Below, piece after piece: positions 6,365-47,898 of a stretch of 64,000 bases of DNA. Made by a program: the position numbers and the translations under genes. Numbering within the stretch: the first letter of the stretch is position 1; every line of letters starts with the position of its first letter. A model generated the notes under the pieces. It was not told the DNA's origin and did not search any database. It saw nothing but the letters and a program-made list of their open reading frames with translations. Source of the stretch: an archaeon (lineage in GTDB: Archaea; Nanobdellota; Nanobdellia; Woesearchaeales; SM23-78); NCBI GenBank assembly GCA_043801165.1, contig JAZDMG010000028.1, positions 10,988 through 74,987 on the forward strand, written 5' to 3'.

Positions 6365-7654
6365 TCAGAAGAAATCATTCAGACCGCTCTGGTTTGGCTT
6401 GGCTGGTTTGTTGACCTTCGCCTTATCTTCGCTCTCGCCATCTCCTGATTCAACCGCAGCCTCTTTGCCGTCAACGACAAGCACTCCGTATTCTCCATCA
6501 TAGCCTGGCTTGACTGTCAATCCAGCGCGCCTGTTCCTCATGATCAGGTCGACAATCTTCCTGCCGGTCACTTTCAGGAGCTCATCCTCACTCACATTAA
6601 GAAGTATATCAAACTCATCCTTGCCTGCCTTCATCACGTTGTAATACTCAGCCCAGACTTTCTTTGAACTCATGGCGCTGCCAAGCTCAAAAGACAGCAG
6701 CTCATGAAGCGGTATTATCCTGATGAATTCAGGAACATCAACAGGCTTGGCCCTGTCAGCCAACTGCTCCACCCTGTTAAGCACTCCTATGGTTAGAGGC
6801 CTCTTGCAGGCAGGGCAGATGCCTTTATTATTTGCTGATTCTTCAGGGCTCATCGACACACCACAAAGCCTATGGCCATCGAAATGGTACTTCCCATAGC
6901 TTGGATCGACCTCTATTGTCCCGGCAAGCCCTGCGCCCGTCCTGATGGCCTTCAGCAGGTTCATGTATGTCAATTCTGCCATCTCAAAAATTGTTGCTTC
7001 GCGTCCTATGCGCCAGGGCCAGAATGAGTGCAGGTCAGAGAAGCTCACAATTTTAATTCCGTCAAGCCCTGAAAGCATCCTGTTCATCTCAGGATCGCTG
7101 CTAAGGCCTGTCTCGATGGCGTGGATGTTCTTTGCTTCTGGCCCGAATGCCTCTTCAAGGCTGTCAAATCCTGTCTTGCTCCCGAATACACCGAACCACG
7201 GCGTCCAAGCATGTGCCGGGATTAATTCAATCTGGTCGCTTATCATCCTAATCTCACGTGCAAAATCAATGCATGATATGCTGAACATCGGCCTGCCGTC
7301 GTAATCAACCCTTCCCTTGCTCTTGAGGTAAGAGGTTATTTTCTCTACTATCGCGAAGTTCGGAGCGAGAACAACAAGATGGACCCGTCTTCCCTTCCCT
7401 CCCTGGGTGTATATCAGCGATATCTCGTTCTGAAGCACGAAAGGAAATCCGGCTTTGGTCCTGAGGATTCCTGTGCCGTCCTCAGCAAGCTCTGTTTTTA
7501 GTTCCTCTATCCATTTCGGATGGGAGAAATCCCCTGTGCCTAGAAGATTTACGCCTTTTATGCGCGCCCATTTCTCAAGGTTGGCTATCGTCAGTTCTGA
7601 AGAACAAGCCCTTGAATGCCTTGAATGGATGTGCAAATCTGCGATTATTTTCAT
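6365..7654 (-). CDS. EndoQ-like PHP-domain endonuclease (archaeal TIGR00375 family) with internal Cys4 zinc-binding motif
   Basis: The N-terminus reads MKIIADLHIHSRHSRA...GVNLLGTGDFSHPKWIEEL, the PHP pattern of EndoQ. A CGVS...CPACKR zinc finger is present. The 429 aa length matches the known EndoQ size. Confidence 0.65.
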   Translation of the reverse strand: MKIIADLHIHSRHSRACSSELTIANLEKWARIKGVNLLGTGDFSHPKWIEELKTELAEDGTGILRTKAGFPFVLQNEISLIYTQGGKGRRVHLVVLAPNFAIVEKITSYLKSKGRVDYDGRPMFSISCIDFAREIRMISDQIELIPAHAWTPWFGVFGSKTGFDSLEEAFGPEAKNIHAIETGLSSDPEMNRMLSGLDGIKIVSFSDLHSFWPWRIGREATIFEMAELTYMNLLKAIRTGAGLAGTIEVDPSYGKYHFDGHRLCGVSMSPEESANNKGICPACKRPLTIGVLNRVEQLADRAKPVDVPEFIRIIPLHELLSFELGSAMSSKKVWAEYYNVMKAGKDEFDILLNVSEDELLKVTGRKIVDLIMRNRRAGLTVKPGYDGEYGVLVVDGKEAAVESGDGESEDKAKVNKPAKPNQSGLNDFF

Positions 7655-7688: not shown

Positions 7689-10100
7689 TCATTCCTTGCT
7701 CAGCTCAGTAATCAGGAATATGAACTCCGAGAGGAAGTTGTTCTTTTCCTCGTCAGGGATGAATGTATCCAGCAGAAGCCTATCTGATTTCTTGTAGAAT
7801 CCTAACAGCAGGACCTTGAGCAGCACAGGCACTCTTGATTCCTTTGCTTTGGAATAGAAGGCTGCATCATCGAATTGGTCAGGCAGCTTGAATATTGAGG
7901 CGTAAATGCTCACTATGGCTGAATGCATCTCTTTGGGGGCGACATTGGTCCTGTTGCTTAAGCCGATCAGCTCTTCCCTATAGCTCTTGAACTCCTCTGG
8001 ATTCATCAACTGCTTCCTGCGCCCCAGAATTTTTATGACCCGACACTTCCTGCAGAACCTGTTCAGCCCAATCATCAGCATGAAGAATTTATTGTTGTCA
8101 TATAATCGTTTTGCGTACTGCGGCCTTGCAAAAACCAAGAATACATAGAACAAGAACACTCCCATTGTTATCAAGAGAATCAAGCCGAGCATGACGAACC
8201 CTAATATATAAGCCTTGAATAAATCAGCGAATGCACATTTCCTGCATGGTCCACCACAATCGGTGAATCTCTCTCCGCCGTTCTTCTTTCCATCGTCACA
8301 GGACGGGCAAGGCGCACATTTTCCGCCGCAATCAACTCCCTCTTCTCCCTGGTTCTGCAGCCCATCCGAGCAATTGCCACAGAGCTTCGGGCATGGGCCC
8401 TCGCAATCAATGCCTTTTTCTCCCTGGTTTCTCACATTATCATGGCATGATGCAAAGGTGCACATCTTGCTCCTGCAGTCAAGGCTCTCACAATCACGGC
8501 CATATTTACAGCTCTGGTTGCCCTGGCATTTTTTGCAGGAGCCGCCGCAGTCAACATCGCTCTCATTCTGGTTGAGCATGCGATCAGAGCAGCTGGGACA
8601 TGGGACACAGGGACCACCACAATCAACCTCTCCCTCACCTTGGTTCTGGATCTTGTCAGAGCAGCTGGGACATGGGACACAGGGACCACCACAATCAACC
8701 CCAGTCTCTATGCCATTCTTGATGCTGTCATTGCATGACGCAGAGTAGATGCACTGTTTTATCTCATCTGGTTTTGTCCTGTTGTCATCGCAGTCTGACA
8801 TATCATTGCATCTTCTCATCTGGAATCCCAGAGGCATGCAAGCCCCCCAAGCAGTGCAGTTCCAGTCAGGCCTGCAACCTTCAAGGTCTCCCTCGCAAAG
8901 GCCGCAGTCAAAAGAGCAGGTGGTGCAATTCTCCCCTTGACCGCAGAAATAATTTCCGCAGAACTCCTCGATGCTCATGTTGCTGAATCGCTTTATGACC
9001 TGGGAATTTATGACATCAACCTTCACTATGTTGCTCTCGGCTGTCGCATTGAACATGTCGCTTGCGATGAAGACAAAATAGGCATATCCCAGGGTTCCTG
9101 TCATCGGATCAAAAAAGACAGTGCCATCCTTTGCAAAGCTCACCCTAATCTGCGCGTAGGCCACAACAAAATCATAGCTTGGCTGCACCTGCCTGAATCC
9201 GAAGAAGAGGCGCCCTCCGTCAGGGTCGCGTATATAATCATTAAGGTCATAGGCGCTTGCTCCTGTGTCGCTGAACAAGACAAACCCAGGCACTTCATGC
9301 ACCAATACAGGAGGCCTGTTGACCTTCAAAACCTGGAACTCCCACACCTGGACTGAAGAGAGATTGTAGGAGTCAGTTATGATCACAGTGATGTTATGCA
9401 CCCCGGAAACATTAAAACCAGGAGTGAACAGCAAAGAGCTCCTGCCAGCAGATCCAACAATAGGTTGTGAATCAAAAAGCCATTCATAGGTGACGGTCTC
9501 TTCCGGATCATCAAGCTCAACCTTGACCGAGAAATTTATCGTGGCTGTCTGGTTTGTGCCGAATTCATCCAGGGCAGGCTTGGCATCAACTATCTTTGGC
9601 CTGACAAACACCTCTAAAGTGACTATCGCGGTGTCTGCGCATGAGCCTTTTACAGCCACGACCGCGATTCGCGAAGAGCCTCTGTCAGATGATTTCGGTG
9701 TGAAATCAAGCACTCCATCTCTTGAAAGGTTTATCCCTGCAAGATTCCTGCCAAGCAAAGCATAGGAATATATCACGCCTGCTTCGCCCATGTTGCTGAG
9801 GTTGAAATCATAGCTGAAAGAGACATCTTCTTTTAGCACAAATCTCTCAGGAAAGATTATCTTTGGGGTGTTGGTGATATCACAGGCTCCCTGGACCTCT
9901 TGGCATAGGATGATGATTGCACTAATCATGATTATCGCTAGCCAGGCATTCCTGCCAGAACCACACGGATGGCATATCTCGCGGCCTAAAACACTCAACC
10001 TCTTCCCTCTGATTTTAAATTTGATTAATCGTTTATCATAACACGCCATTAGAAGTATAAAAATGTAGCTATTTTCAGGCACGGAACGACAGACGGCCAC
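7689..10100 (-). CDS. Type I membrane surface protein. It has an N-terminal signal (alternative start ATG at 9928, MISAIIILCQEVQGA), a cadherin-like region with DPDGG, six or more Cys-rich 24-aa repeats (DCGGPCVPCPSCSD...NQGE), one TM helix and a cytoplasmic tail of about 150 aa
   Basis: A hydrophobic N-terminus is present. The repeats have the form (V/I)DCGG(P/S/K)C.(P/K)C(P/Q)SC.D...NQ.E. The TM segment reads FKAYILGFVMLGLILLITMGVFLFYVFLVFA. Confidence 0.5.
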   Translation of the reverse strand: MAVCRSVPENSYIFILLMACYDKRLIKFKIRGKRLSVLGREICHPCGSGRNAWLAIIMISAIIILCQEVQGACDITNTPKIIFPERFVLKEDVSFSYDFNLSNMGEAGVIYSYALLGRNLAGINLSRDGVLDFTPKSSDRGSSRIAVVAVKGSCADTAIVTLEVFVRPKIVDAKPALDEFGTNQTATINFSVKVELDDPEETVTYEWLFDSQPIVGSAGRSSLLFTPGFNVSGVHNITVIITDSYNLSSVQVWEFQVLKVNRPPVLVHEVPGFVLFSDTGASAYDLNDYIRDPDGGRLFFGFRQVQPSYDFVVAYAQIRVSFAKDGTVFFDPMTGTLGYAYFVFIASDMFNATAESNIVKVDVINSQVIKRFSNMSIEEFCGNYFCGQGENCTTCSFDCGLCEGDLEGCRPDWNCTAWGACMPLGFQMRRCNDMSDCDDNRTKPDEIKQCIYSASCNDSIKNGIETGVDCGGPCVPCPSCSDKIQNQGEGEVDCGGPCVPCPSCSDRMLNQNESDVDCGGSCKKCQGNQSCKYGRDCESLDCRSKMCTFASCHDNVRNQGEKGIDCEGPCPKLCGNCSDGLQNQGEEGVDCGGKCAPCPSCDDGKKNGGERFTDCGGPCRKCAFADLFKAYILGFVMLGLILLITMGVFLFYVFLVFARPQYAKRLYDNNKFFMLMIGLNRFCRKCRVIKILGRRKQLMNPEEFKSYREELIGLSNRTNVAPKEMHSAIVSIYASIFKLPDQFDDAAFYSKAKESRVPVLLKVLLLGFYKKSDRLLLDTFIPDEEKNNFLSEFIFLITELSKE
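8585..8700. repeat. Tandem 72-bp near-identical DNA repeat inside the surface protein gene, encoding the CGGPCVPCPSCSD units. More degenerate copies lie at about 8260-8580
   Basis: The block cagagcagctgggacatgggacacagggaccaccacaatcaacc occurs at 8585 and again at 8657. Confidence 0.8.
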
Positions 10101-15478: not shown

Positions 15479-16900
15479 CTAATTCACATTTCTGCAAGTG
15501 CCATCGTGATATAAATACATATTCACAGAACAGGTCACACATTTCGCTCGGTAACATATCGCAGTTGAATCTGCACAATATCCAGAACCACAAGGTTCGT
15601 GACAATATCCATCAGTTCCAACGACGTATCCTGCATCTGAACATCTCGAATCACCACTGCCAGTTTGCCTTGTTTCACAATAGAAATTATTACAAATATC
15701 ATAACAGCCGCCATCATTTCCTAAAATTTGTGTTTTATCGCAATATGCATAGCATTTTCCATTTAAATAATAAGAACCCTCTGAACAATAAATGAATTGT
15801 TCATTCGCAATGGAGTTAAATGCTATTGCCATGTGATTCTGATTAGTATTTGATATCCAAGTGTTTATTCCCACTAAATTCCCATTTTTATCGAAAAGTC
15901 CTCCCCCGCTACTTCCAAAATAAGTATATGCATCGGATTCAATGGTTTTAAAGGACTTTCCAGTAGATTGTGATAGAACATCTTTAATATTATTAATTGC
16001 TCCTTCGCTTACTGAGAATTCCACAACATTTTGAGCATAAGAAGGATATCCTACCGCAGTTACTTCATCATTAATATTGAAATCAGGAGTATAACTTGCG
16101 GATTCATAATCTGAAGCTCGAGATGTTTTTATGGTTAACACAGCTAAATCAATATCAGACTCACTGAACGAAACCTTATCAACTGCGTAAATGTTTCCGT
16201 CTTGTGTTCTTACACTAATTTTTTCAGAAATTCTTTGATAACAATTTAGTTCATTGTAGTTACAATCAACGACGTGCCTATTTGTATAAACGGTCAGCTC
16301 CTCATTTTCATTAGAAGTAATGACGCCCGAACCAGTGCCTCCATTAGAAAAATAGGTACCATCAGCATTTCTTCCAACAATTTCATATTTTACCCACACA
16401 ATCGTGTTTTTTATATTGTCTAAAACATCATTTTTACATTTGCCACAATCCTGCGAACATGTAGAGCATGTCTCTCCATTATTGCAGTATCCATCTCCAC
16501 AATATAAACATCTGCCGCAATCAGCAGGGCAACTAGTGCAAGTTTCCGCAAATCCACAATATCCATTACCACAATATTCAGAACTTGTAATGGGCTCAAT
16601 ATTTGATACGGTCTCGAAGTTATTGACATCGGTCTCATTTGAAGGGTTTAATATACCAAAATACGCCAAAGTTCCTATAACTATTAATACGAATATATTC
16701 AATGCAAAAATTATACCCAAAACAATCAATATTTTCTTTAGAAGTTTACCTTTTCCACTTTTATGTATCTTATCAATTTCTTTCTGCCATCGTCCACCAT
16801 GCAATTTATAACACTTATCGCAAAGCATCGTATTGTCTTCAAAAGTCCAGAAAGTACTTGTTTTAGTTGTTCCACAATGACTACATTTGTCTTTTGGCAT
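15479..16900 (-). CDS. Membrane-anchored trypsin-like (S1/HtrA-type) serine protease. From the N-terminus it has a cytoplasmic Cys4 zinc ribbon, one TM helix, a Cys-rich extracellular module and the protease domain
   Basis: I chose the start at ATG 16900 (MPKDKCSHCGTTK...CDKC) so the gene does not overlap the tRNA. The TM reads ILIVLGIIFALNIFVLIVIGTLAYFGI. The His-box-like TNRHVV and Ser-box-like GSSGGGLF are present. Cys-rich CGxGYC repeats are present. Confidence 0.55.
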   Translation of the reverse strand: MPKDKCSHCGTTKTSTFWTFEDNTMLCDKCYKLHGGRWQKEIDKIHKSGKGKLLKKILIVLGIIFALNIFVLIVIGTLAYFGILNPSNETDVNNFETVSNIEPITSSEYCGNGYCGFAETCTSCPADCGRCLYCGDGYCNNGETCSTCSQDCGKCKNDVLDNIKNTIVWVKYEIVGRNADGTYFSNGGTGSGVITSNENEELTVYTNRHVVDCNYNELNCYQRISEKISVRTQDGNIYAVDKVSFSESDIDLAVLTIKTSRASDYESASYTPDFNINDEVTAVGYPSYAQNVVEFSVSEGAINNIKDVLSQSTGKSFKTIESDAYTYFGSSGGGLFDKNGNLVGINTWISNTNQNHMAIAFNSIANEQFIYCSEGSYYLNGKCYAYCDKTQILGNDGGCYDICNNFYCETRQTGSGDSRCSDAGYVVGTDGYCHEPCGSGYCADSTAICYRAKCVTCSVNMYLYHDGTCRNVN

Positions 16901-16984
16901 GTATACCCTCGACTTGGAATATTCGGTTCGATTTCCAACCGATGTATATATTACTTCGTTCGAATGCCCCTGCTGGGATTTGAA

Positions 16985-17087
16985 CCCAGCTCCCAAGCTC
17001 CGCAAGCTCGTATACTATTTGCTTTAGCAGCAGTTCTCTGCCGTTATCCAAGCTATACTACAGGGGCTTATGTACAGCGTTAGCGTG
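16985..17087 (-). tRNA. Intron-containing tRNA of 103 nt, tentatively tRNA-Arg (anticodon GCG), with a non-canonical intron of about 28-31 nt in the D-loop region
   Basis: On the minus strand the acceptor is GCCCCUG/CAGGGGC plus A, the T-arm is CUGGG-UUCAAAU-CCCAG and the anticodon arm is CGAGC-UUGCGGA-GCUUG. GUAU occurs twice, as D-stem strands with G-U pairs, flanking about 39 nt that is D-loop plus intron. Confidence 0.55.
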
Positions 17088-17147
17088 GGCTTATTTAAAA
17101 GCGTTTGGTATTAGAAATGTTTATAAAAGAGCAGTCAGTCATCAATA

Positions 17148-17987
17148 ATGATGACTAAATTGAAATCGTGGCTTTTGGCTGCGGCGCTCATTCTCAATCT
17201 CAACATCCCCAGCAAGCCGGCAGCTGAAGAGCGGTTTGCATCCCTAGAATCGCGGGTCCGCTTCAAAGTGGCTTTCTTTGCAGGTCATAGCGATGTGAAA
17301 GAAGCTTATGGCGCATTGAGCGCGGTAAAGATCAGTGAGAACTGCTATAACGATGCCATACTGGAAAGGATAGGCAGATATCGTGCCAGTCCAGTCTACG
17401 GCTTTGAAAGCATGCTGTTCTATTCTGATAAGCACATCTCGCTCCAGGAAAGGCCTATCCTGGCTGAAGAGAGCCAAGCAAACATCTATGTGGAGATACA
17501 CCACGATTCAGGGTCTTTAAAAAACATAAAAAACAAGCGCTGGAGAAATATGGAAGGATTCTCGGTTTATTTTCCATCAGAAGATATGGAAGGCAATCCG
17601 AACATTTTCAAAGAAGAAAGCGAAAAGCTAGCGCTGTGCATCGGGAAAGAGATCAAACAGGCAGGATTCAAGCCGTCCGACTATTACACCGCAAGGTCAG
17701 AAGAGAATGGAAAAACAATTTTTTCAGCAGATTTCGGGGTATATTCAGCCAGGTTCGATGTTTTAAAGAACGCAAAGATGCCTGCAGTCCTTGTGGAATG
17801 CGGGAACATAGTGAACCCTTACGAAGAGAAGTTGATGCAAGACCCGGGGGCACAGATGATGATCTCAGAAGCAATAATGAGAGGGATATCAAGCTACCTT
17901 GCTAGTTATCGCAAGCATTGTGATGATCTACTGATGCAATCGTTGAAGGCGCTCTCCTTCCGACGCATGGCCCGTCTAAGACAATAA
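17148..17987 (+). CDS. Secreted N-acetylmuramoyl-L-alanine amidase (Amidase_3 / AmiC-CwlV type)
   Basis: An N-terminal signal peptide is present. The Amidase_3 blocks FFAGHSD, IYVEIHHDS, GFSVYF and MPAVLVECGNIVNPYEEKLMQDPGAQMMISEAIMRGI are present. Confidence 0.7.
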   Translation: MMTKLKSWLLAAALILNLNIPSKPAAEERFASLESRVRFKVAFFAGHSDVKEAYGALSAVKISENCYNDAILERIGRYRASPVYGFESMLFYSDKHISLQERPILAEESQANIYVEIHHDSGSLKNIKNKRWRNMEGFSVYFPSEDMEGNPNIFKEESEKLALCIGKEIKQAGFKPSDYYTARSEENGKTIFSADFGVYSARFDVLKNAKMPAVLVECGNIVNPYEEKLMQDPGAQMMISEAIMRGISSYLASYRKHCDDLLMQSLKALSFRRMARLRQ

Positions 17988-18570
17988 ATCCTGCCTTTCG
18001 CAGGTTGTCCCTTACGCTCCGCGCGCAGGAATAGGTCGTCAGCACCCCGTTCTTGTTCATGTGTTTTCTTATTTCATTAAAAAAGTCTTCGGTCCAGAGC
18101 TCAGGGCATTTCTTTGGGCTGAAAGGGTCATGGAAGACCACGTCAAAGCTCTTGAGCGACTTTATGCTCTCCCGAGCATCTCCTACAACAATCTTTATGC
18201 TTATGCCCTCGTGAGAATATTCTCCGCCGCGCTCAACCGCGTCCTGTATCGCAGAATAGCTCTTGATATGAGGCTTCAAAGCAGCTATCTTCTTGAGGAT
18301 CTTCTCATCATTCTCAAGCCCCACTATATTTACAGAGCAGGCAAGATTCGCCTCAAGGATCAAGTCCAAAGCAGCCGCAGAGTTATACCCAAGGCCGAAG
18401 CATACATCAAGGATGCTTATCTCACCGGCACCAGCTCTTTCTGCAACTCCAGCAGGCCCTGCATGCTTCTTGAAAGCCTCCTCGACAGCTCCGCTCACAG
18501 AATGATAGCATTCATCATATCTCTCATTATGAAAGGTCACACTGCCATCCTTAGTCACAACTTCTTTCAT
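17902..18570 (-). CDS. SAM-dependent methyltransferase, MnmC C-terminal domain-like (DUF752)
   Basis: The segments ILDVCFGLGYN and DVVFHDPFSPKKCPELWTEDFFNEI are present. Its 3' end overlaps the amidase 3' end convergently by 86 nt. Confidence 0.5.
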   Translation of the reverse strand: MKEVVTKDGSVTFHNERYDECYHSVSGAVEEAFKKHAGPAGVAERAGAGEISILDVCFGLGYNSAAALDLILEANLACSVNIVGLENDEKILKKIAALKPHIKSYSAIQDAVERGGEYSHEGISIKIVVGDARESIKSLKSFDVVFHDPFSPKKCPELWTEDFFNEIRKHMNKNGVLTTYSCARSVRDNLRKAGFIVLDGPCVGRRAPSTIASVDHHNACDN

Positions 18571-19779: not shown

Positions 19780-20700
19780 ATGACTTTCGTCAAGAAATGC
19801 CCTGAATGCGGGGGCATAAACTTATTCTGGAACAAGGAAAAAGGAGAGATAATCTGCAGAGACTGCGGTCTAGTCGTAGAGGACAAGATGGTGGACTTCG
19901 GCCAGGAATGGCGTGAGTTCGATGGAGAGAGCGCAGACAAGATGAGGCGTACAGGAGCTCCCATGAGCTACACCCAGTTCGACCAGGGACTTGGGACAGA
20001 TGTCGGAAAGAAATCAGACCTTTACAATCTAGGCGGAAAGGCCAAGAGCAAGTTCTTCAGGCTCAGGAAATGGCAGCAGAGGATCAGCACAGCCATAGAG
20101 AGGAACCTCAAGCTGGCATTGTCAGAATTGAAGAGAGTCAGCTCATATCTTAGGCTTCCGAGCAGCGTCGAGGAAGAGGCTGCAAGGATATACACTCTGG
20201 CGGTGCAGAAAGGCCTTGTCAGAGGAAGGAGCATGGAATCCGTTGTCGCAGGAGCCCTTTACGCAGCCTGCAGGCGCCATGATGTCCCGAGGACGCTTGA
20301 TGAGCTTGGAGAGTCATCCAACATCGAGAAGAAGGAGATCGGAAGGACCTATAGGTTCATCACAAGAGAGCTGGGCATCAAGATATTGCCTAGCAACCCT
20401 GCTGATTATATCCCTAGGTTCGCTTCAAGCCTGAAGCTTAATGCAGAGACCCAGAGCAAGGCAGTGGAGATCATAGAATCAGCGCAGAATGTTGAGTTGA
20501 CCTCTGGCAGAGGACCGACAGGAATCGCTGCCGCGGCGCTCTACGTGGCTGCTCTCATCAACGGAGAGAAAAAGACCCAGCGGGAAGTGGCTGACGTCGC
20601 AGGAGTGACAGAGGTCACCATCAGGAACCGCTACAAGGAGCTGCTCGAGAGGCTTAAGCTTGACAAGGAGATAAAGAAGGTCAAGAAGAAGAAGGCTTGA
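19780..20700 (+). CDS. tfb: Transcription initiation factor TFB (TFIIB homologue)
   Basis: An N-terminal Zn ribbon CPECGG...CRDCGLV, a B-finger/linker and two cyclin-fold repeats are present. The protein is 306 aa. Confidence 0.95.
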   Translation: MTFVKKCPECGGINLFWNKEKGEIICRDCGLVVEDKMVDFGQEWREFDGESADKMRRTGAPMSYTQFDQGLGTDVGKKSDLYNLGGKAKSKFFRLRKWQQRISTAIERNLKLALSELKRVSSYLRLPSSVEEEAARIYTLAVQKGLVRGRSMESVVAGALYAACRRHDVPRTLDELGESSNIEKKEIGRTYRFITRELGIKILPSNPADYIPRFASSLKLNAETQSKAVEIIESAQNVELTSGRGPTGIAAAALYVAALINGEKKTQREVADVAGVTEVTIRNRYKELLERLKLDKEIKKVKKKKA

Positions 20701-23540: not shown

Positions 23541-24965
23541 CTATCTGAAGTCTTCCAGAACAAGATCAACGACATCCTCTCTCCAGCCGACATTCATAAG
23601 AGTGTCTTTTATGTTCTTCAGGCTCAGCCCTTTGTCAAGGCAGGCCTGCACAAAGCCATCAAGCTTATCAATATTTTCATCCACCGTATGCACATCATGC
23701 ATCACCACATCTACTGCGTGCTCATCCCATCCGATGCTTAGCAACTCTTCTCTTATATCAGAGTCGTCTGCTCCTTTTCGCACCCTTGACTCTATCAATC
23801 GCTCGGCCTCCTCGACCTTGAAATAGGGAACTATAAGGTCTTTTCTTATCATCAGTACCTTTCCCGCGCCTTTGCCGCTCGATTCAGCAACTGCCAAAGT
23901 CCTCTGGGCATCCCTCTTCTTGAGGATGACTGACCCCACAAGGACTAATCCTCCGATGGCCAGGAGGAATAGCAACGGCAAGAGCATCTTGCTGCCCGTG
24001 CCTCCGTATTCGCCAGAGACAGGAGAAAAATCATCCTTTTGTTCATCGCTGCCTTGCTCAGCCACAACTCCTCCGGTGGGAGTTGTCTCAGGGACCTTTG
24101 TCTTCACCGCATCGAACAGTGCGATGGTCCTGAAATCATCTGAGTTCACGCTTTCCCTGATGTAATAGGTGAAGCTCTTGCTCTCGTCCTCCTTTAGGGT
24201 TGGGACAGACCATTCAAGCAGCGGGTCTGTGGAGATCATCCTTGGCTTCTTATCAACGAAAATCAATGATGAAGAAGATGATACTATGCTCTTAGGTATG
24301 AGCTCTATTATCCTCAGATCATAGAGGTCGTATAATGCCCTGACAGTTATCGTCACCCTGGTCCTACGGACCTGAGCAGCTGAGTTCGCATACACCGTCC
24401 TTATCACAAAGGTCTCAACTTTGTGATCCAAGCCTACTGCGCCTAATTTTCCTGAATTCATCCCTGAGATCAGGGAGCTGATGTAATCCTTTGCAGCCTG
24501 GTCAGGGCTGAGGTCGAGCCAAGGCGCCAGTCCGCTGGCATCCAAGAGCCTGCTGGAGGTCAAGAAAGTATTCAGCCTCTCGGCCTTCATCTTGTCAGAT
24601 GGCAATGAATCATAGCCTAGCTCCTTAGGAGAGATTGTGTTCAACAGCTGGTCAAGATTGTCAATCTTCACAGGCTGGCTCTTGTTAGAGTTGTTGACCT
24701 TGATAAAGCCGCCTCCACCGCCGCCTCCACCGCCAGAAGAAGGGAGCGAGAATATCACTGTAAGTATGCTTGATATGTTGGCATTGAAGTTTCCGTTATC
24801 ATTGTTAACTGTCAATGTTCCGTTGACGCCTGTGATCGCATCAGCTGATACAGCGGCTGAGCTAGACAACAGGACTAGCATCATGCAGAATCCTATAAAG
24901 TGCTCTTTCTTCAAAAAAACAACCCTCGCATCATCTTGTTTAAAAGTGACTGGCAAACCGCTCAT
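23541..24965 (-). CDS. Cell-surface protein with signal peptide, Gly9 tract and C-terminal TM anchor. It is co-transcribed with the upstream beta-helix protein (4-nt overlap)
   Basis: An N-terminal hydrophobic signal MMLVLLSSSAAVSA, the tract SSGGGGGGGGGF and the anchor LLPLLFLLAIGGLVLVGSVILKK are present. Confidence 0.4.
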   Translation of the reverse strand: MSGLPVTFKQDDARVVFLKKEHFIGFCMMLVLLSSSAAVSADAITGVNGTLTVNNDNGNFNANISSILTVIFSLPSSGGGGGGGGGFIKVNNSNKSQPVKIDNLDQLLNTISPKELGYDSLPSDKMKAERLNTFLTSSRLLDASGLAPWLDLSPDQAAKDYISSLISGMNSGKLGAVGLDHKVETFVIRTVYANSAAQVRRTRVTITVRALYDLYDLRIIELIPKSIVSSSSSLIFVDKKPRMISTDPLLEWSVPTLKEDESKSFTYYIRESVNSDDFRTIALFDAVKTKVPETTPTGGVVAEQGSDEQKDDFSPVSGEYGGTGSKMLLPLLFLLAIGGLVLVGSVILKKRDAQRTLAVAESSGKGAGKVLMIRKDLIVPYFKVEEAERLIESRVRKGADDSDIREELLSIGWDEHAVDVVMHDVHTVDENIDKLDGFVQACLDKGLSLKNIKDTLMNVGWREDVVDLVLEDFR

Positions 24966-27900
24966 GGCGTATCAAACAGGCCCCAGCCATAGCTCCCAGA
25001 ATACGCCCCTGCGCTAAGCCCAGTGTAAGGTGTGATGAACAATGAGACGTTCCCTGCGTATATCTGGCTGTACATATTATACTGAGGCATCTCTGAAGCT
25101 GAAAATAATGACATGTTGAATGTCTGGGCGTTGGCGTATGTGAAGCTGTTGCTTATGTTCAGTCTTGCAGTATCGTTGCCTATCTTGGCATAGCTTATGT
25201 CATAGATGTTCACGCCGCTTGTCAAGTTCATGAAGAACCTAATGAAAGGATAGCCCTTGCTCATCATGGTGAATGTGAATATGATTTCGCTCCCACCGAT
25301 GGTCCCGGTCGCGTAGGCAGCCCCGACTATTGTCGGCACTATAGCAGGCACTGAAGATATCTGGGTTGTGTTAGTGTAGTTGTGGTTGTAAATATCATAG
25401 CAAAGAGCAGATAAGTTCCAGGTGCCCATTGGCAGGTAAAGCCCCTGGCAGAGTGTCGAGAAGCTCAAGGTAGAGTTGAAGCTCCCGTTCAACCATCGCA
25501 TGGAAGCGTTGTCAGACTTTTCAATCCTGTAGGTGCAGTTGCTGAAGTTCAGGTCGTATGCCAAGCCGCTCGCAGTGAAGTTCTGCGCAGAGACGAATGC
25601 GGTGGCGCTGAGTGAGACAGCTGGATACTCACAGGCTACGCTTGCGCCTGATGCAAAAGTATCGTTCAGGAGAGGGCAAAAGTCTACTGCATAGCCTGCA
25701 GGAGTAGCGTCCTCGTCATCCTGGATGCTGGCGTTGTCGATGAAATATGCCCAAGTGCTCCCCCAGTAGTTGTTCTCAGCTGTTATGTTGATGTCCTGAG
25801 AGTTGATCAGATCATAGTTGGTGTTATCATAAATGTCATTGTAGGATATGTTGTTGGTTGTTGAGGAACCTTGCAATATCAAGCCGTCCGCGTTAAACTT
25901 TATGCTGTTATTCACAATGGTGCTTCCATTGCTATTGAAGAAAGACAGCCCGTACTGGCTGCCGCCATGCACGATATTGTTCGATATGCGGCAGTTATAG
26001 GTTGAAACTAAATTGAAGCCATAACTGTTGAGGGATAGGTTGTTATTCCTTATAGAGCAGTTGTCTGCATACTGCAGGATAACTCCGTCAGCACTCGCAT
26101 TGAAGAACGAATCCTCAATAGTTGCGTTGAATGAACGATAAACATAGACCGCGAAGCCAGTCCATATGAAGCTGTTGTTCCTTATGGCGGTGTTGTTCGA
26201 GTCGGTAAGATATATTCCGCCCATTGAGTTCAAGCTGAAGTTATTTGATGCATTGATGACATTGTTTTCGGACAAGTTCAAGAACATGCCGTAATAAGCA
26301 CTGGAGCGGATGATGTTGCCTGAGAAGGTGTTTGAGTCAGAATCCACCAAATAGACGCTGTTGTTGTCAGTGTTATTAATTATGCATCTAGAGATAGTGT
26401 TGCTGTTTGATTGCATCATATCAATCCCGACATCAGGCCCGCCAGTTACGCTTACATTGTATATTGTTGAACCAGATGCGTTGCAGAGGCGTATTCCTCT
26501 GCCCCAATTAGTGTCTATTCCTGAAACGGTAAAATCAGATAGGGTTATGTTGCTAGAATTGAGTATCCCTATGAACGCAACATCTGCTGAGAATGACTTG
26601 TCGTGGTCATTCATATATGTGACTATGGGCATCCCGCCCATGATATTTCCAATTCCTGAGAAATTCTGCATACAATCCAACAGATTAAGGACCACCCAAT
26701 CAAGCTTGCCATCAGATAAATTATTGCCGACAAAATTATTGTATGTCGAGTCCGCTATGTAGATCCCGCTGGTGTTCATGAAAAGGTTATTTGCAAAAAA
26801 GCTTCGGCTGACGTTTAGCATAAACAACCCGCTTGCGGAAGAGTTGGTGGTGTTGGTCGCGTTGACAGTAATATTAGCTGAATCCCTCAAGAATATGCTG
26901 TGGCCGCTGGAAGTTCCATTCACGCTTGATGAACTGATAAAATTGTCTCTTGCGAACCAAAGATAAAACCCATAACCATCGATGCCGATAATGTTCTGTC
27001 CTTTGAAAACATTGCTGTTTCCATTGAAAACATACAGTCCTCCAACGCTGTTCTGAAGAATGTTGTTGTTGAAGCTGCTAGAGTTGGTATTATTCAGGTA
27101 AATTCCCCGCGCAAGGCTTGATGATATGTTTGTGCCATTCACTGTTATTGAAACCGACTCTGAAAGTCGAATTCCATCAGAACCAGAGACATTCACTGCC
27201 GAATTCAAAATGTTGTTAGAACGGGAAGATACGATATATATCCCTTCTTCTTCCGAATCAAAGATACTGCTTTCTGCGATACTGTTGTTATGCCCACCCC
27301 CAACATATATTCCTTTGAACATCGATTCGTACACTATGTTGTTGTTGAAACTCGTGTAATTCGAGGAATTGAATACGACACCGATGTTACTGAATGATAT
27401 GTTCGTGTCATTGATCGTGTTTCCTGCAGAAGTCTCAATTACCAGTCCGTGAGATGTGACATAGTCCCGCCCGCTGTCATTGATGTAAGCACGCAGAACA
27501 TTGTTGTTATTTGACCCTGAAAAGAGGTGGAAGCCGTGGCTCCCTGAGCGCAGAACCTTGCAGTCACTGAAATTATTGCCATCGCTGCCGACTATGAAGA
27601 ACCCTCTCAATGTCGAATTGGTCATTATATCATTTGAAAAAGTGCTTGTGTCAGCCCCGTTCAGGTAAACTGCGTTGTTGGCCGAGTCAGTCACATTGGT
27701 ATTATTCACTATGTTGTTCGCTGAGTTGACTATTTCTATGCCGTTTGTGAGGCTGCTGTTTATGAGACTACTATCAATAACATTGTTATCTGAACCGGTT
27801 CCGATAAAGAAGCCACGCGTTCCGGAAGAGTATACCTTAACTGCTGAAAAGAAGTTATTGTCGCTGTCCGAGGTAAGATAAAAACCGGCATACGAATCAT

Positions 27901-28519
27901 TTGTGATTATATTATTGAATTCGCTGCCGTCACAATTACTTAAGGAAATCCCTTCCATATCAAAATTGCTTACATTAACATTATTAACTTGCACATCACG
28001 AACGTCAGATAATATAATCCCCTCTCCTAATCCACCACTAGCGAAGCTATCATTAATGGTGACATTAGTTGAGTTATAAACAGAATAAGCAACCATATAA
28101 TTTATTATGCCACATCTTTTAATCGTGACATTATCACTAGAATTAGTATATATCCCCTGGCTGCCAGGAGCATATACAATCTGATTGAAAACAGAATTAT
28201 CGCAGTCAAGTATTATATCATCCTTGAGAATGAAGATGGTGCCGTTTCCACCAACATCGGTTATATTAAAATTAGCTGTCTGGTTTAAAGTATAGACTCC
28301 GCTCTGGTTGATTATTATCGTATTATCAGTGCTGTTGCTGTTTACCAGAGCAGACGTGAAGTTAGAAGCATTATAGGGGCAGACCAGAGGTGAATTGCAC
28401 ACGTAGATGTCAGCTGCGCTCGCAAGGCTCATCGCCATAAGAACAAAAACGACAACAACTAGCGAGAGCGTAGCCCTCTTGGAATAACCCACCTCAACCA
28501 TCCTGATTACAACCACCAC
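24962..28519 (-). CDS. Giant (1185 aa) secreted protein made of right-handed parallel beta-helix (PbH1/NosD-like) repeats, very rich in N-x-S/T sequons. Candidate S-layer or adhesin protein
   Basis: An N-terminal signal/TM MVVVIRMVEV...LVVVVFVLMAMSLASA is present. Dozens of repeats with NN.I....GI.L..S.NN.I.NN.I periodicity are present. The composition is N/S/T/G-dominated. Confidence 0.55.
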   Translation of the reverse strand: MVVVIRMVEVGYSKRATLSLVVVVFVLMAMSLASAADIYVCNSPLVCPYNASNFTSALVNSNSTDNTIIINQSGVYTLNQTANFNITDVGGNGTIFILKDDIILDCDNSVFNQIVYAPGSQGIYTNSSDNVTIKRCGIINYMVAYSVYNSTNVTINDSFASGGLGEGIILSDVRDVQVNNVNVSNFDMEGISLSNCDGSEFNNIITNDSYAGFYLTSDSDNNFFSAVKVYSSGTRGFFIGTGSDNNVIDSSLINSSLTNGIEIVNSANNIVNNTNVTDSANNAVYLNGADTSTFSNDIMTNSTLRGFFIVGSDGNNFSDCKVLRSGSHGFHLFSGSNNNNVLRAYINDSGRDYVTSHGLVIETSAGNTINDTNISFSNIGVVFNSSNYTSFNNNIVYESMFKGIYVGGGHNNSIAESSIFDSEEEGIYIVSSRSNNILNSAVNVSGSDGIRLSESVSITVNGTNISSSLARGIYLNNTNSSSFNNNILQNSVGGLYVFNGNSNVFKGQNIIGIDGYGFYLWFARDNFISSSSVNGTSSGHSIFLRDSANITVNATNTTNSSASGLFMLNVSRSFFANNLFMNTSGIYIADSTYNNFVGNNLSDGKLDWVVLNLLDCMQNFSGIGNIMGGMPIVTYMNDHDKSFSADVAFIGILNSSNITLSDFTVSGIDTNWGRGIRLCNASGSTIYNVSVTGGPDVGIDMMQSNSNTISRCIINNTDNNSVYLVDSDSNTFSGNIIRSSAYYGMFLNLSENNVINASNNFSLNSMGGIYLTDSNNTAIRNNSFIWTGFAVYVYRSFNATIEDSFFNASADGVILQYADNCSIRNNNLSLNSYGFNLVSTYNCRISNNIVHGGSQYGLSFFNSNGSTIVNNSIKFNADGLILQGSSTTNNISYNDIYDNTNYDLINSQDINITAENNYWGSTWAYFIDNASIQDDEDATPAGYAVDFCPLLNDTFASGASVACEYPAVSLSATAFVSAQNFTASGLAYDLNFSNCTYRIEKSDNASMRWLNGSFNSTLSFSTLCQGLYLPMGTWNLSALCYDIYNHNYTNTTQISSVPAIVPTIVGAAYATGTIGGSEIIFTFTMMSKGYPFIRFFMNLTSGVNIYDISYAKIGNDTARLNISNSFTYANAQTFNMSLFSASEMPQYNMYSQIYAGNVSLFITPYTGLSAGAYSGSYGWGLFDTP

Positions 28520-35840: not shown

Positions 35841-36701
35841 TTATTTCGTTGCTGCATACTTGAAATTCACATCACGTTGTTCAGCTGGAAGTTGATACCC
35901 ACCGCATTCAAAGGGATAAGCAAGCACTCCGCTTGGAAAATCCGCATCAGGGCTATAGCATTTCCAGTAAAAGAATGAGCTTGGTTGGATCCAATGAAGA
36001 TAAGGATTTCCTTCTTTAACAGTCGGATTTATTGATGTATTTGATACTTTGAAACAAAAAGAAGCAAAAGTGTGTGTGCCAACACTGCCGGCATATCCAA
36101 TCAATTCTCCGCGTTTTACTGTAAATCCAATTAATGCTTTGCATGCAGATGCTTTGCCTTCTTTTGTTATGTAATCATCAAATGCAAAGAAAAGGTGTCC
36201 CTGAGCTTGGCTACTGTCATACAACTCTTCAGATTCACTACAATCTGGATTTTGATAGTGTCCAAGCAACAGTGGCGAGCTGTATAAATGATAAGTCTTA
36301 ATAATCATACCTGGCCAATCAGGACTGACAGACTCAAAGTATAACACCACATCATTAAATGGGGTGATTTTTTGTCCGTCTACAATCTTATATTCTGCAT
36401 TATTATTTTGAAAGCCTACTAATACCATATCAATAGGTGCAAGTAAAGGTGTTCCATGCGCTAGTTCGAATTCTATTCCACATTTAGTAGCATAAGGCTT
36501 CGAATATTTACTGCCACTTTTTGGGCCAAGCGTGATTATATTAGGGTCAGCATCGCCAGTATATGCTTCCGTATGCGTATTGATACCGACCATGCTGGAT
36601 GGCGGCGAGGTAATCACGGATGCACTCGTATTAGGCACTGGAATAGGTAGAGAAGGAGGGGTTTTGTTGAATATTTTTTCAAAAATTCTACTCGGATTCA
36701 C
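35841..36701 (-). CDS. LytM/M23-like peptidase-fold protein, possibly degenerate. The ORF starts at GTG. An upstream ATG (36765) with a signal anchor is in the +1 frame across an A10 tract
   Basis: LAHGTPLLAPIDMVLVG resembles the M23 block G.D...GTPV.A...G.V. VKRGELIGYAGSVGTHTF resembles the M23 block V..G..IG.VG.TG..TGPH. No HxH motif is seen. Removing one A from the A10 tract gives MKKKFIVLILILVFVIGIFYAVNPSRIFE in frame. Confidence 0.45.
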   Translation of the reverse strand: MNPSRIFEKIFNKTPPSLPIPVPNTSASVITSPPSSMVGINTHTEAYTGDADPNIITLGPKSGSKYSKPYATKCGIEFELAHGTPLLAPIDMVLVGFQNNNAEYKIVDGQKITPFNDVVLYFESVSPDWPGMIIKTYHLYSSPLLLGHYQNPDCSESEELYDSSQAQGHLFFAFDDYITKEGKASACKALIGFTVKRGELIGYAGSVGTHTFASFCFKVSNTSINPTVKEGNPYLHWIQPSSFFYWKCYSPDADFPSGVLAYPFECGGYQLPAEQRDVNFKYAATK

Positions 36702-37139
36702 GGCATAAAAGATGCCAATAACAAATACTAGAATTAGAATTAAAACTATGAATTTTTTTTTTCATAACATCTAACTTAATATTAGTGTTTATATATTTAC
36801 TTAAAAACGCGTAGTTTTATTTTAGACTTGGAATTCTTATTAGCCCCAATCTTTGACTTAAAAGTATAGTAGCCCCGCTCGGACTTTCGCCAGCCTTTTC
36901 TAAAAAAGGTTGTTTCGAACCGAGGTCCCAGGACATTCTCAGCCAGAACAGACGTCCACGGCTTCCAAAATCCCGGATGACTGGTCTAAAAACAGAGTTT
37001 TTGGACTTTCAAAAATCTCTGATTTTTGTTTGACCACTACACCACGGGGCTATAACGCAGATGTTGGAAGCTATGCTTTATAAATCTTTTTGGGCGAAAA
37101 ACAAAAAACTATAAATAAGCTCGGCCGTTTCTTTGGCAG

Positions 37140-41303: not shown

Positions 41304-41732
41304 ATGAGAGGAGGTTGGAAGATGATAGACCCATTTGAAAGGACGAGATATATCAAAAACATTGTGCAGATGATATATCCTAAAATATCTCATGAGGAGC
41401 TGAATACCTGCATTCAAAGGATAGCAAAGCACAAGTATAGGAAGCAGATGAAGCTGTCTGAGAAAGAGAGCGTCATATGTGATTTGCTGCTTCAACACCA
41501 GATAAAGCCAGCTACAGCGTATCTCTGGTACAAGGTCCGTAACCTTCCGGCTTATTTACAGCAAGAGATCAGAGACCGAAAGCTGAGCATGACAGAAGCT
41601 TTCCAGAAGAACCTTGAAAGCAACAAGCCAATCCAGGTGCTGGGTGAAGAGCTTGGCAAGGAGATCCAGGAATACGTGAATGAACTGGCCAAGAGAGACT
41701 TCTTGAGGGGTGATGACTATGCAATTCAATGA
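41304..41732 (+). CDS. Hypothetical protein upstream of and overlapping the integrase. Possibly an excisionase or regulator-like protein
   Basis: A 142-aa ORF that overlaps the integrase start by 23 nt. Confidence 0.3.
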   Translation: MRGGWKMIDPFERTRYIKNIVQMIYPKISHEELNTCIQRIAKHKYRKQMKLSEKESVICDLLLQHQIKPATAYLWYKVRNLPAYLQQEIRDRKLSMTEAFQKNLESNKPIQVLGEELGKEIQEYVNELAKRDFLRGDDYAIQ

Positions 41733-42651: not shown

Positions 42652-42659
42652 CGAATAGG

Positions 42660-43187: not shown

Positions 43188-43200
43188 TCACAATCCCTCG

Positions 43201-43659: not shown

Positions 43660-43753
43660 AATATTAGGTAATACTAAGCCGTATATAAAATTTCCCTATC
43701 GGGAAGAAAAAAGTCCCGATTGCGATATAAACACGTAGTAATATCGGTTTATC

Positions 43754-44078: not shown

Positions 44079-44273
44079 TAAGTTTTGAGAGGGATTGATA
44101 ACGGCCAGGTTTCAATGGGTCGTTATCATCCTTCTTTTATAAATTTTGTACTGAATTTGATTTGAGCCTATTAGGAGGCTATTGAATAATTTGTTGAGTT
44201 TAGGTTTTTCATGAAATCTAAACTAAATCAAACATGACTGTAAGAAACGAATTGAAAATTAGGAGGAGGTATT

Positions 44274-47866: not shown

Positions 47867-47898
47867 CTTAAATCAATCCCTCAAATCAATTACCCGAT

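Follow-up and report, generated by a model that had tools for sequence, protein, structure and literature searches.

The amidase gene described here lies in a 64-kb window, by which we mean the whole stretch of DNA that was analysed, and encodes a single-domain protein of the Amidase_3 family placed between a divergent tRNA-Arg(GCG) gene and a convergent methyltransferase gene. The host is a Woesearchaeota/Nanoarchaeota-type archaeon: the TFB encoded at 19780-20700 shares 85-94% of its residues with proteins assigned by name to Ca. Woesearchaeota or Nanoarchaeota, and ELP3 and intron-bearing tRNAs are also found in the window. The amidase is already present in the database (P0001, 'MAG: N-acetylmuramoyl-L-alanine amidase [archaeon]'). 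The features are collected in Table 1. Among the window ORFs scanned we found no further murein hydrolase gene, and no SLT lytic transglycosylase is encoded in the 64 kb.

Table 1. Features of the amidase locus and of the LytM-like gene in the same window.
Feature	Position	Strand	Basis and remarks
tRNA-Arg(GCG) gene	16965..17067	-	divergent from the amidase; Rfam evalue mode, fold, ARAGORN after deletion, orthologues
D-loop insert of about 29 nt, putative non-canonical intron	17019..17047	-	borders +/- about 3 nt; orthologue alignment
TTTATAAA, archaeal TATA-box-like element	17120..17127	+	20 nt before the amidase ATG; read from sequence
Amidase_3 (N-acetylmuramoyl-L-alanine amidase) CDS	17148..17987	+	279 aa, second Met at codon 2; ORF, Pfam, AF2, Foldseek
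Predicted export signal, aa 1-26	17148..17225	+	K-rich n-region, 14-aa hydrophobic core, PAA/EE
Amidase catalytic domain, aa 39-252	17262..17903	+	invariant columns, profile alignment, model secondary structure
Zn ligand H47	17286-17288	+	
Zn ligand E64	17337-17339	+	
Zn ligand H118	17499-17501	+	
Catalytic E217	17796-17798	+	
C-terminal tail, basic and specific to the lineage, aa 253-279, net +5	17904..17987	+	coordinates, charge
Methyltransf_30 (MnmC-like SAM methyltransferase) gene	17902..18570	-	Pfam 105 bits; convergent syntenic anchor
Degenerate LytM-like protein, earlier called 'M23-like'	35841..36701	-	Pfam, phmmer, AF2, Foldseek

The catalytic blocks of Amidase_3 that a preliminary description had recognised in this ORF are real. 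Pfam PF01520 matches residues 45-248 with 82.1 bits (cut-off 27, E 6.4e-23), the alignment covering positions 5-173 of the 174 in the model, and the ORF has no frameshifts or internal stops. The three zinc ligands, whose absence the preliminary description had named as one outcome that would speak against it, are all present: H47 (in the context G46-H47), E64 and H118 (in H118-H119-D-S) are, like the catalytic E217, invariant or nearly so in alignments of 7, 80 and 12 relatives, and in a profile alignment these residues fall on the GH, E, IH and LvE blocks of CwlV (1JWQ) and 4RN7. The AF2 model is confident (pLDDT 91.6, pTM 0.84), and all 33 PDB entries matched by it in Foldseek at E <= 0.001 are Amidase_3 peptidoglycan amidases, with a target TM of 0.71-0.87 for the single-domain targets and with Rv3717/Ami1, AmiA, 4RN7 and CwlV as the best matches. 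A search for cell-wall-binding domains, also proposed at the outset, yielded none in the amidase by Pfam at E <= 1, where Amidase_3 is the sole real domain; a BNR_2 match, under its Pfam cut-off, was dismissed as chance.

The closest structural counterpart, Rv3717/Ami1 of Mycobacterium (PDB 4LQ6, 4M6G, 7AGM; Foldseek E 3.5e-15, target TM 0.75), is likewise a single-domain Amidase_3 protein without a wall-binding module, has the same H/E/H plus E active site, and resembles the archaeal model in its variable region, where residues 172-201 form a loop and a beta-hairpin instead of a blocking helix. The two proteins are, however, only 19-21% identical, and Rv3717 is a bacterial periplasmic autolysin that acts on its producer's own wall, whereas the producer of the archaeal enzyme has no murein. 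The fold and the catalytic residues are also those of E. coli AmiA, AmiB and AmiC, which have the dLytM activators EnvC and NlpD, but the archaeal protein has no AMIN domain, and its residues 172-203 contain no predicted helix long enough to act as a block. It stays under every NCBIfam equivalog or exception cut-off tested, with 42, 31 and 27 bits for AmiA, AmiB and AmiC (cut-offs 400, 532 and 700, short by a factor of about ten or more), 45 bits for CwlD (cut-off 222) and 40.6 bits for the Rv3717 model NF038140 (cut-off 335). With the Amidase_3 lysins of phages and Gram-positive bacteria (CwlV 1JWQ, C. difficile 4RN7, CD27L, PlyPSA) it shares the core fold and the motif blocks; in contrast to the SIHxN of these lysins, its subfamily carries the motif IHHDS, has longer loops at 121-136, 144-154 and 172-198, and is some 35-40 residues longer from H118 to the last strand.

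The amidase begins with MMTKLK followed by SWLLAAALILNLNI and by PSKPAA, after which comes EE. The protein has no hydrophobic segment other than this stretch, which was modelled by AF2 as a helix (residues 3-16) at lower pLDDT. Read by eye, the pattern is that of a signal peptide with a candidate cleavage site before EE, and the close relatives each carry a Sec, a twin-arginine (RRxF) or a lipobox signal. An intact murein-type amidase in a DPANN archaeon, as originally described, is thus what domain, residues and fold establish, and the N-terminal pattern suggests that it is exported. Upstream, the TATA-like element, which has a comparable A/T counterpart before the amidase orthologue in locus L088, would be a promoter element, and its position would imply a leaderless or near-leaderless mRNA. 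At the other end, most close relatives stop near aa 252, and the additional tail arises where the reading frame runs antisense into the last part of the convergent methyltransferase gene (an overlap of 86 nt); the methyltransferase residues in this region are conserved. In spite of its net charge the tail does not qualify as a membrane-active amphipathic helix, as its hydrophobic moment is at most 0.33.

The tRNA gene reported next to the amidase was confirmed, even though neither ARAGORN, in default or intron mode, nor Rfam at its gathering score calls a tRNA there. A 7-bp acceptor stem, a T-arm and an anticodon arm with GCG can be recognised, the region folds into a cloverleaf-like structure (z -3.4), and the Rfam tRNA model gives 22.7 bits in evalue mode. 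What hides the gene from the programs is an insert of 29 nt in the D-loop: in a deletion scan, ARAGORN calls tRNA-Arg(GCG) once a segment of the D-region is removed, and alignment with the intron-less tRNA of L174 places the insert there, although an ATA repeat blurs its borders by about 3 nt. We consider the insert a putative intron, although no BHB splice motif was demonstrated at it. Orthologues of this tRNA occur in L088, L089, L090, L091, L174 and L175, and in L088-L090 they have introns at the canonical 37/38 site instead of the D-loop.

Adjacency to a tRNA had been read as a mark of horizontal acquisition, and a comparison of related loci does not bear this out for any recent event. The order tRNA-Arg, amidase, Methyltransf_30 is also found in L088 and L175, and L174 has tRNA-Arg, amidase and a gene of 154 aa. 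Between the window's methyltransferase and those that border the amidase slot in L088, L089-L091 and L175, identity is 59-63% (63% in L088, 60% in L175), while the amidases are 33-40% identical. The synteny sought in relatives is therefore present in three other assemblies, but it is not universal: the slot between the tRNA and the methyltransferase is empty in L090 and L091, and in L089 the gene of an unrelated membrane protein occupies it. Because syntenic relatives with a TFB 94% identical to the window's lack the amidase, the gene is dispensable. In GC, GC3 and codon usage it does not stand out from the rest of the window (z 0.2, 0.07 and -1.25). None of the signs of a tRNA-targeted integrative island was found: no copy of the tRNA-Arg 3' end and no att-like repeat in the window, no integrase within several kb (the nearest recombinases are at 41.7 and 54.6 kb) and a composition z of about 0. 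A 17-nt repeat at 15337 and 17111, considered as an integration signature, merely represents two TATA-like promoter elements. A phage donor, or a phage endolysin, was also rejected, since tblastn against 50,697 GenBank phage records gave no match to the amidase and IMG/VR contained only two matching loci, at 34% identity. On the far side of the tRNA, the gene of a trypsin-like protease (15479-16903) stands out strongly by its low GC (GC3 0.25, z -2.6) and is missing from the relatives.

The amidase is a divergent sequence: it shares 42% identity with the nearest cluster representative, and among 1.8 billion proteins only 5 match at E <= 1e-30. A word-indexed homology search returned 7 matches, and the DPANN relatives were found by an exhaustive search of representatives. 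That the gene is of bacterial ancestry, as had been supposed, agrees with a scan of GTDB in which the best 80 loci were bacterial without exception; the window's own genome is not among the matches listed, and the scan is no gauge of how frequent the gene is in archaea. In a neighbor-joining tree with 200 bootstraps, the nearest neighbours are the syntenic amidases (P0009, P0011 and P0013), in a small clade shared in 65-79% of bootstraps, so that the phylogeny proposed in the preliminary description supports the shallow syntenic group but singles out no bacterial donor. The DPANN group appears nested within the mainly bacterial IHHDS subfamily. Since the deep nodes have no support (12.5% for a clade of 42 members), neither the direction nor the number of transfers is proven by this tree, and a sister relation to a Desulfobacterota-type clade, with 1% bootstrap, was dropped.

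The archaeal nature of the relatives is apparent from their names (P0041 Woesearchaeota, P0064 Nanoarchaeota) and their surroundings, such as an MCM with intein in L084, and eIF6, prefoldin and TFB in L086, which is named Nanoarchaeota; L085 shares with the window a lineage-specific protein that is 55% identical. In four of these DPANN loci (L084, L086, L093 and L096) the amidase adjoins a gene for an exported SLT lytic transglycosylase with a QES/VES catalytic motif. The two genes are joined by an ATGA start/stop junction in L084 and L086 and overlap in L093 and L096, the order being reversed in the latter, and in L086 a gene for an OmpA-family protein follows directly after the amidase. The link to other murein-directed genes that had been suspected in the window is therefore found in its relatives, and the coupling of SLT to the amidase supports bacterial murein as the substrate.

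We consider it probable that the gene encodes an exported zinc amidase acting on bacterial murein, anciently acquired and vertically kept in a sublineage of Woesearchaeales. The protein would be a functional zinc-dependent N-acetylmuramoyl-L-alanine amidase which, once across the archaeal membrane, would act on peptidoglycan of bacteria, in intact walls or in released muropeptides, and cut its MurNAc-L-Ala amide bond. Because the archaeon itself makes no murein, such a substrate must come from bacteria, whether host, prey or wall debris. The gene would have descended from the IHHDS subfamily and entered the sublineage long ago, in the slot between tRNA-Arg(GCG) and the methyltransferase gene; since then it would have passed down by vertical descent while its sequence diverged fast, and some relatives would have lost it or never had it.

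A purely nutritional enzyme, stripping peptides off free muropeptides or necromass for import without any attack on living cells, is a less likely reading, in which an auxotrophic DPANN cell could import amino acids and amino sugars. The single catalytic domain without a binding module is consistent with it, as are the best structural match (Rv3717/Ami1), the loop and hairpin modelled in place of a blocking helix, and the presence of another secreted degradative enzyme, the trypsin-like protease, nearby. In a bacterial homologue locus (L004), moreover, the amidase lies between an OPT oligopeptide transporter and a NamZ exo-muramidase, and given this context and the likeness to Rv3717, scavenging of fragments fits at least as well as attack. 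However, Rv3717, also without a wall-binding domain, is itself able to lyse many kinds of cell wall (PMC3852659), the window shows no transporter for MurNAc or for peptides, and the lipobox-anchored versions of the relatives, paired with SLT and an OmpA-like protein, suggest action at a cell-cell interface.

It is quite improbable that the enzyme serves the archaeon's own envelope, in the manner of an autolysin, on a murein-like or pseudomurein-like polymer or another N-acyl-amide-linked glycan. One sublineage has long retained the gene without loss of any catalytic residue, export is predicted as in bacterial autolysins, and the old archaeal clade that the preliminary description had associated with pseudomurein or another substrate is partly seen. 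Nevertheless, there is no murein- or pseudomurein-synthesis gene among the approximately 48 window ORFs scanned, absence from close syntenic relatives would be odd for a wall-maintenance enzyme, and the SLT and OmpA-family domains of the partners in relatives are both murein-specific. Furthermore, nearly all archaeal peptidoglycan hydrolases fall outside the pseudomurein-making classes (Strock et al., PMC12352652).

Drift to a non-murein substrate, or decay, is highly improbable. The distance to the nearest representative and the few matches in the database would agree with it, and so would an evolution much faster than that of the neighbours, the C-terminus running into the antisense of the next gene and the scores under all equivalog cut-offs, but the four catalytic residues and the blocks around them are conserved across the group, the fold is predicted with confidence, the frame is unbroken and the promoter-like element is intact. 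The reading as a recent arrival (a bacterial or phage lysin carried by a tRNA-targeted genomic islet, or by a piece of bacterial DNA placed here through an error of assembly or binning) is largely refuted and has equally little chance of being right: the variable slot, the outlying protease missing from relatives and the mostly bacterial subfamily would favour it, but they are outweighed by the same gene order in three independent assemblies with flanks 60-63% identical, the native composition and archaeal TATA-like element, the lack of an att duplicate and of a nearby integrase, the near absence from phage collections and the distance to the closest bacterial sequence among the matches listed, which is about 35% identical.

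To our knowledge, the experimentally characterised DPANN archaea all depend on archaeal hosts, and bacterial hosts for some Woesearchaeota have so far been argued from GH23 genes and pore-forming toxins. It is conceivable, though rather doubtful, that one sublineage of Woesearchaeales cuts murein directly at the site of contact with a bacterial host, by means of a conserved kit of exported proteins (the fast-evolving amidase, with SLT and an OmpA-like murein-binding protein in sisters); if so, the kit would mark out genetically those DPANN archaea that are parasites of bacteria and not of archaea.

Anti-bacterial wall hydrolases in archaea are already published, both as a concept and with a first experimental proof (Vigneron 2022; Strock 2025), and the present locus leaves the overall picture of archaeal peptidoglycan hydrolases unchanged. 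The GH23 lytic murein transglycosylases of Woesearchaeota (AR20; Vigneron et al. 2022, PMC9723730) come from the same archaeal group and have the same inferred target, and relatives of our amidase overlap or are start/stop-coupled with a gene of this SLT/GH23 type; yet GH23 cuts a glycan bond and the amidase an amide bond, and the word 'amidase' occurs 0 times in that paper, where such a partner is unmentioned. The modular archaeal hydrolases of Strock et al. 2025 (PMC12352652) have, as proposed here, a bacterial ancestry and a murein-cleaving domain; they include Woesearchaeales LysM+Amidase_3 (MBW2966008.1) and LysM+SLT proteins, about a third have a recognised export signal, Nanoarchaeota are prominent among them, and they are read as anti-bacterial tools, archaeal peptidoglycan hydrolases having killed bacteria in experiments. 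That survey required a wall-binding domain, which our amidase does not have, and its genes are patchy and enriched on plasmids and small contigs, whereas the amidase is chromosomal and syntenic in four lineages. What the locus adds is a second, well-preserved class of murein enzyme that was invisible to the 2025 survey, old and vertically kept in one sublineage, with a two-gene SLT-amidase cassette in sister lineages.

The preliminary description had combined the amidase with an M23-like protein at 35.8 kb into a predatory or episymbiotic arsenal. The idea, which we can only infer, had already been published (PMC9723730, PMC12352652), and its second member is only a degenerate LytM-like protein. 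The ORF matches Pfam M23 with 17.6 bits, below the 28.7 cut-off, its best PDB match by phmmer has E 0.07, the HxxxD/HxH zinc-ligand positions are not conserved among 30 homologues, and an A10 run breaks its 5' end, which looks frameshifted. We therefore rejected its identity as an M23 peptidase, and it does not qualify as a further hydrolase; it lies 18 kb from the amidase. The signals that do remain are weak but consistently LytM-like, the top 13 Foldseek matches of a low-confidence AF2 model (pLDDT 47) being all LytM/M23. Under the doubtful kit reading above, this widely found degenerate LytM-like protein might be a partner or activator of the amidase.

The protein encoded by the amidase gene matches the Pfam family Amidase_3 (PF01520) with an E-value of 6.4e-23 and 82.1 bits (cut-off 27), and a Pfam search detected in it neither a second domain nor a cell-wall-binding domain. 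Its active-site residues (H47, E64, H118 and E217) are invariant or nearly so in three alignments, with 6, 79 and 11 relatives, and in a profile from 80 sequences they fall on the GH, E, IH and LvE blocks of CwlV and 4RN7. The same 80-sequence alignment was the input for an AlphaFold2 model, which is confident (pLDDT 91.6, pTM 0.84). All 33 Foldseek matches in the PDB at E <= 0.001 are peptidoglycan amidases of the Amidase_3 family, led by Rv3717/Ami1, AmiA, 4RN7 and CwlV. The protein scored far below every cut-off of the curated orthologue groups CwlD, AmiA, AmiB, AmiC and Rv3717. Profile alignment revealed that the motif IHHDS replaces SIHxN and that ~35-40 additional residues lie between H118 and the last strand, and the protein is a divergent member of an IHHDS-marked Amidase_3 subfamily. 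A search of cluster representatives (1.84 billion) gave E <= 1e-30 for only five, the top one 42% identical; the sequence itself is already deposited as 'MAG: N-acetylmuramoyl-L-alanine amidase [archaeon]'. The N-terminus consists of MMTKLK, a 14-residue hydrophobic core and PSKPAA/EE; this segment is the sole hydrophobic stretch of the protein and a separate helix in the model. All close relatives have a signal of the Sec, twin-arginine (RRxF) or lipobox (L-x-G/S-C) type, and the window amidase is predicted to be exported. The preliminary description of a secreted murein amidase in an archaeal genome is confirmed. Its interpretation is supported in part: a DPANN archaeon does carry a murein enzyme with bacterial ancestry, whereas a recent tRNA-linked acquisition and an M23 partner did not find support.

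Features of the window and of compared loci (positions are those of the window unless a locus, L, is named)
Feature	Position	Strand	Evidence or remark
Secreted surface proteins	4483-5649	+	
	7689-10100	-	
	24962-28519	-	
429-aa ORF	6365-7654		
Trypsin_2 protease	15479-16903	-	
tRNA-Arg(GCG)	16965-17067	-	Rfam evalue mode, fold, ARAGORN after deletion, orthologue alignment
D-loop insert	~17019-17047	-	29 nt
Putative promoter element	17120-17127		
Amidase_3 CDS	17148-17987	+	279 aa ORF
Amidase/Methyltransf_30 overlap	17902-17987		86 nt
TFB	19780-20700	+	
LytM-like ORF	35841-36701	-	weak Pfam, PDB and fold signals
Tyrosine recombinase	41710-42651		
tRNA-Pro(GGG)	49685-49759		
Repeat of tRNA-Pro 3' end	49903-49926		24 nt, 92%
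tRNA-Tyr(GTA)	52372-52494	+	canonical 51-nt intron
Tyrosine recombinase, XerA/XerC type	54620-55453	-	171 bits
SLT + Amidase_3 cassettes	L084 7123-8852; L086 7150-8873 + 8936-9910; L093 2671-4490; L096 1009-2695		
Amidase homologue	L004 5896-6714		beside NamZ and OPT transporter

The host is archaeal: its TFB shares 85-94% identity with proteins that bear the names Candidatus Woesearchaeota, Nanoarchaeota or Nanoarchaeia, and ELP3, a ZPR1-type protein and tRNAs with introns are likewise encoded in the window. A scan of ~48 window ORFs turned up no gene for murein synthesis, and it is well established that archaea other than the pseudomurein-making methanogens lack murein. The window also encodes large secreted surface proteins of the adhesin-like kind typical of DPANN, one of 1185 aa with six Beta_helix/NosD repeats and others that are Big_9/PKD/cadherin-like; homologues of the plus-strand one and of the 429-aa ORF adjoin the amidase in another locus, L085.

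In four DPANN loci (L084, L086, L093 and L096) the amidase gene directly adjoins a gene for an SLT lytic transglycosylase, whose product carries its own export signal and an E-S catalytic motif. The two genes are joined by an ATGA start/stop junction in L084 and L086, where the SLT domain scores above the Pfam cut-off; in L093 and L096, where it was identified through homology to those two, the ORFs overlap, and in L096 the gene order is reversed. In L086 an exported OmpA-family (murein-binding)/VWA protein is adjacent, followed by TFB. This linkage points to murein as the substrate of the amidase group. No SLT gene lies near the window amidase within 64 kb. In the AlphaFold2 model a loop plus hairpin occupies the region in which the E. 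coli division amidases have their blocking helix. The closest structural relative, Rv3717, is single-domain like the window amidase and nonetheless acts on many cell walls (PMC3852659). We consider it probable that the window protein is exported and acts as a murein amidase on bacterial wall material, a combined reading that covers both the breaching of living bacteria and the use of debris. Pure scavenging, in which the enzyme would be used to harvest peptides from debris, seems unlikely.

The adjacency to a tRNA had suggested a horizontal acquisition. The gene order in the window is tRNA-Arg(-), amidase(+), Methyltransf_30(-), 154-aa(-), 162-aa(-) and TFB(+). The tRNA, amidase and methyltransferase recur in the same order in L088 (methyltransferase 63%, amidase 38-40% identical to the window) and L175 (60% and 33%), and in L174 the tRNA and amidase are followed by a homologue of the 154-aa gene. 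The amidases of these loci (P0009, P0013 and P0011, respectively) are the nearest neighbours of the window amidase in a neighbour-joining tree, in a small clade found in 65-79% of 200 bootstraps. In L090 and L091 (TFB 94%, methyltransferase 59% identical) the tRNA abuts the methyltransferase and the slot is empty, and in L089 it is occupied by an unrelated multi-pass membrane protein. The amidase gene is ordinary for the window in GC (0.461, z 0.2), GC3 (0.525, z 0.07) and codon usage (z -1.25), and neither a repeat of the tRNA-Arg end in the window nor an integrase near the amidase was found. The recurring synteny, native composition and lack of such a repeat or integrase speak against a recent tRNA-linked event; the adjacency is conserved synteny, not a scar. 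The most economical history is a single old insertion at a change-tolerant slot and vertical descent with fast divergence, with loss or prior divergence in some branches.

The gene directly 3' of the tRNA-Arg encodes a trypsin-like (Trypsin_2) protease that is rich in Cys and has a TM segment and, near its N-terminus, a CxxC motif resembling a zinc ribbon. In base composition this gene stands far outside the range usual for the window (GC 0.35, GC3 0.25, z -2.6); it is missing from the syntenic relatives L088-L091, and is a better candidate than the amidase for recent acquisition.

The tRNA next to the amidase proved real, and unusual. ARAGORN (with and without introns) and Rfam at gathering score reported no tRNA near the amidase gene because of a D-loop insert, delimited by alignment with orthologues from five related assemblies. 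An acceptor stem of 7 bp, a perfect T-arm and a GCG anticodon arm can be recognised in the sequence, which reaches 22.7 bits as a tRNA in Rfam evalue mode and folds four-armed (z -3.4); with a D-region segment deleted, ARAGORN calls tRNA-Arg(GCG). The orthologues have a canonical 37/38 intron in L088, L089 and L090 and no intron in L174, and therefore the intron position moved within one orthologous tRNA. A BHB motif could not be demonstrated for the D-loop insert.

Among GTDB species representatives the best 80 loci are all bacterial, with Spirochaetales (35% identity) followed by Burkholderia, Bradyrhizobium, Verrucomicrobiota and Desulfobacterota; two word-search matches have outer-membrane beta-barrel and TonB-receptor genes close by, and this context marks them as bacterial too. 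In an exhaustive search the closest sequences sit in archaeal contexts: L084 has an MCM with intein; L086, named Nanoarchaeota, has eIF6, prefoldin and TFB; L085 has in common with the window a lineage-specific protein (55% identical); and L087 is probably archaeal because of its RIO1-type kinase. P0041 is named Woesearchaeota and P0064 Nanoarchaeota. A few bacterial sequences are interleaved with these, namely P0140, which adjoins a class A PBP gene, the P0072 cluster, which contains a Desulfomonilaceae MAG, and L004, a Spirochaetales MAG. Bacterial ancestry stands, and no donor can be named, since the deep nodes lack bootstrap support (the 42-member clade has 12.5% and a bacterial sister 1%). 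Phages, the other source that had been considered, were rejected by phage database searches. L004 holds the closest bacterial homologue; its OPT oligopeptide transporter is split, and NamZ is an exo-beta-N-acetylmuramidase. These neighbours suggest that the bacterial members of the subfamily take part in muropeptide recycling.

On the basis of GH23 genes and of pore-forming toxins, and with reference to the earlier AR20 genome, Vigneron et al. 2022 proposed predatory Woesearchaeota; amidases are not mentioned in their paper (PMC9723730). Strock et al. 2025 surveyed 3,706 archaeal genomes and catalogued modular peptidoglycan hydrolases in 175 of them, Nanoarchaeota being prominent. Proteins of the types LysM+SLT and LysM+Amidase_3 from Woesearchaeales are on their list, and two haloarchaeal enzymes killed a bacterium (PMC12352652). 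Their filter made a wall-binding domain obligatory (PMC12352652), so single-domain proteins like the window amidase, which differs from their modular hydrolases in having no such domain, were left out. To the known archaeal hydrolases we thus add a clade of single-domain amidases that is syntenic and vertically inherited, and an SLT-amidase cassette that recurs.

The preliminary description had paired the amidase with an M23-like protein at 35.8 kb, and this second hydrolase did not hold up. The ORF scores 17.6 bits against Peptidase_M23, under the 28.7 cut-off, and its match to a PDB M23 chain has E 0.07. Across 30 homologues the positions of the HxxxD and HxH ligands vary, and in the window the frame is disrupted by an A10 run that closely follows the likely ATG (36765), where 9 A's would restore the N-terminal anchor. 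Its AlphaFold2 model is poor (pLDDT 47), and the 13 best fold matches are all LytM/M23 domains, which makes a LytM-like fold plausible; a role as a degenerate-LytM partner is speculation. Identity within the family is 62-97% across 514 hits, and the MAGs concerned bear the labels Nanoarchaeota, Chloroflexota, Planctomycetota, SAR202 and 'bacterium'; this high cross-domain conservation possibly reflects a mobile or viral origin, or mis-binning. The family protein has ~300 aa and is membrane-anchored (35841-36765 in the window), with a GC3 of 0.30 (z -2.1).

Upstream of the amidase, TTTATAAA lies 20 nt 5' of the ATG, the spacing of an archaeal TATA box before a leaderless mRNA, and would be a putative promoter element; the L088 orthologue has a comparable one. 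The last 27 residues of the protein form a basic tail (net +5, weak hydrophobic moment) that is missing from most close relatives and is encoded on the strand opposite the conserved 3' end of the methyltransferase gene, which runs convergently. We take this tail for read-through, not for a functional module. In L088 the two genes overlap by 23 nt and in L175 by 69 nt.

Elsewhere in the window, a tyrosine recombinase precedes a block of low GC (42.6-49.1 kb; 0.28-0.42 in its genes) in which most ORFs lack a Pfam match, the exception being a CAP/zf-AN1/metallopeptidase-like protein of 745 aa. The end of the block is marked by tRNA-Pro(GGG), whose 3' end recurs 165 nt downstream, and 41710-49926 is possibly an integrated element or its remnant. 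A second recombinase and an intron-bearing tRNA-Tyr(GTA) are also present.
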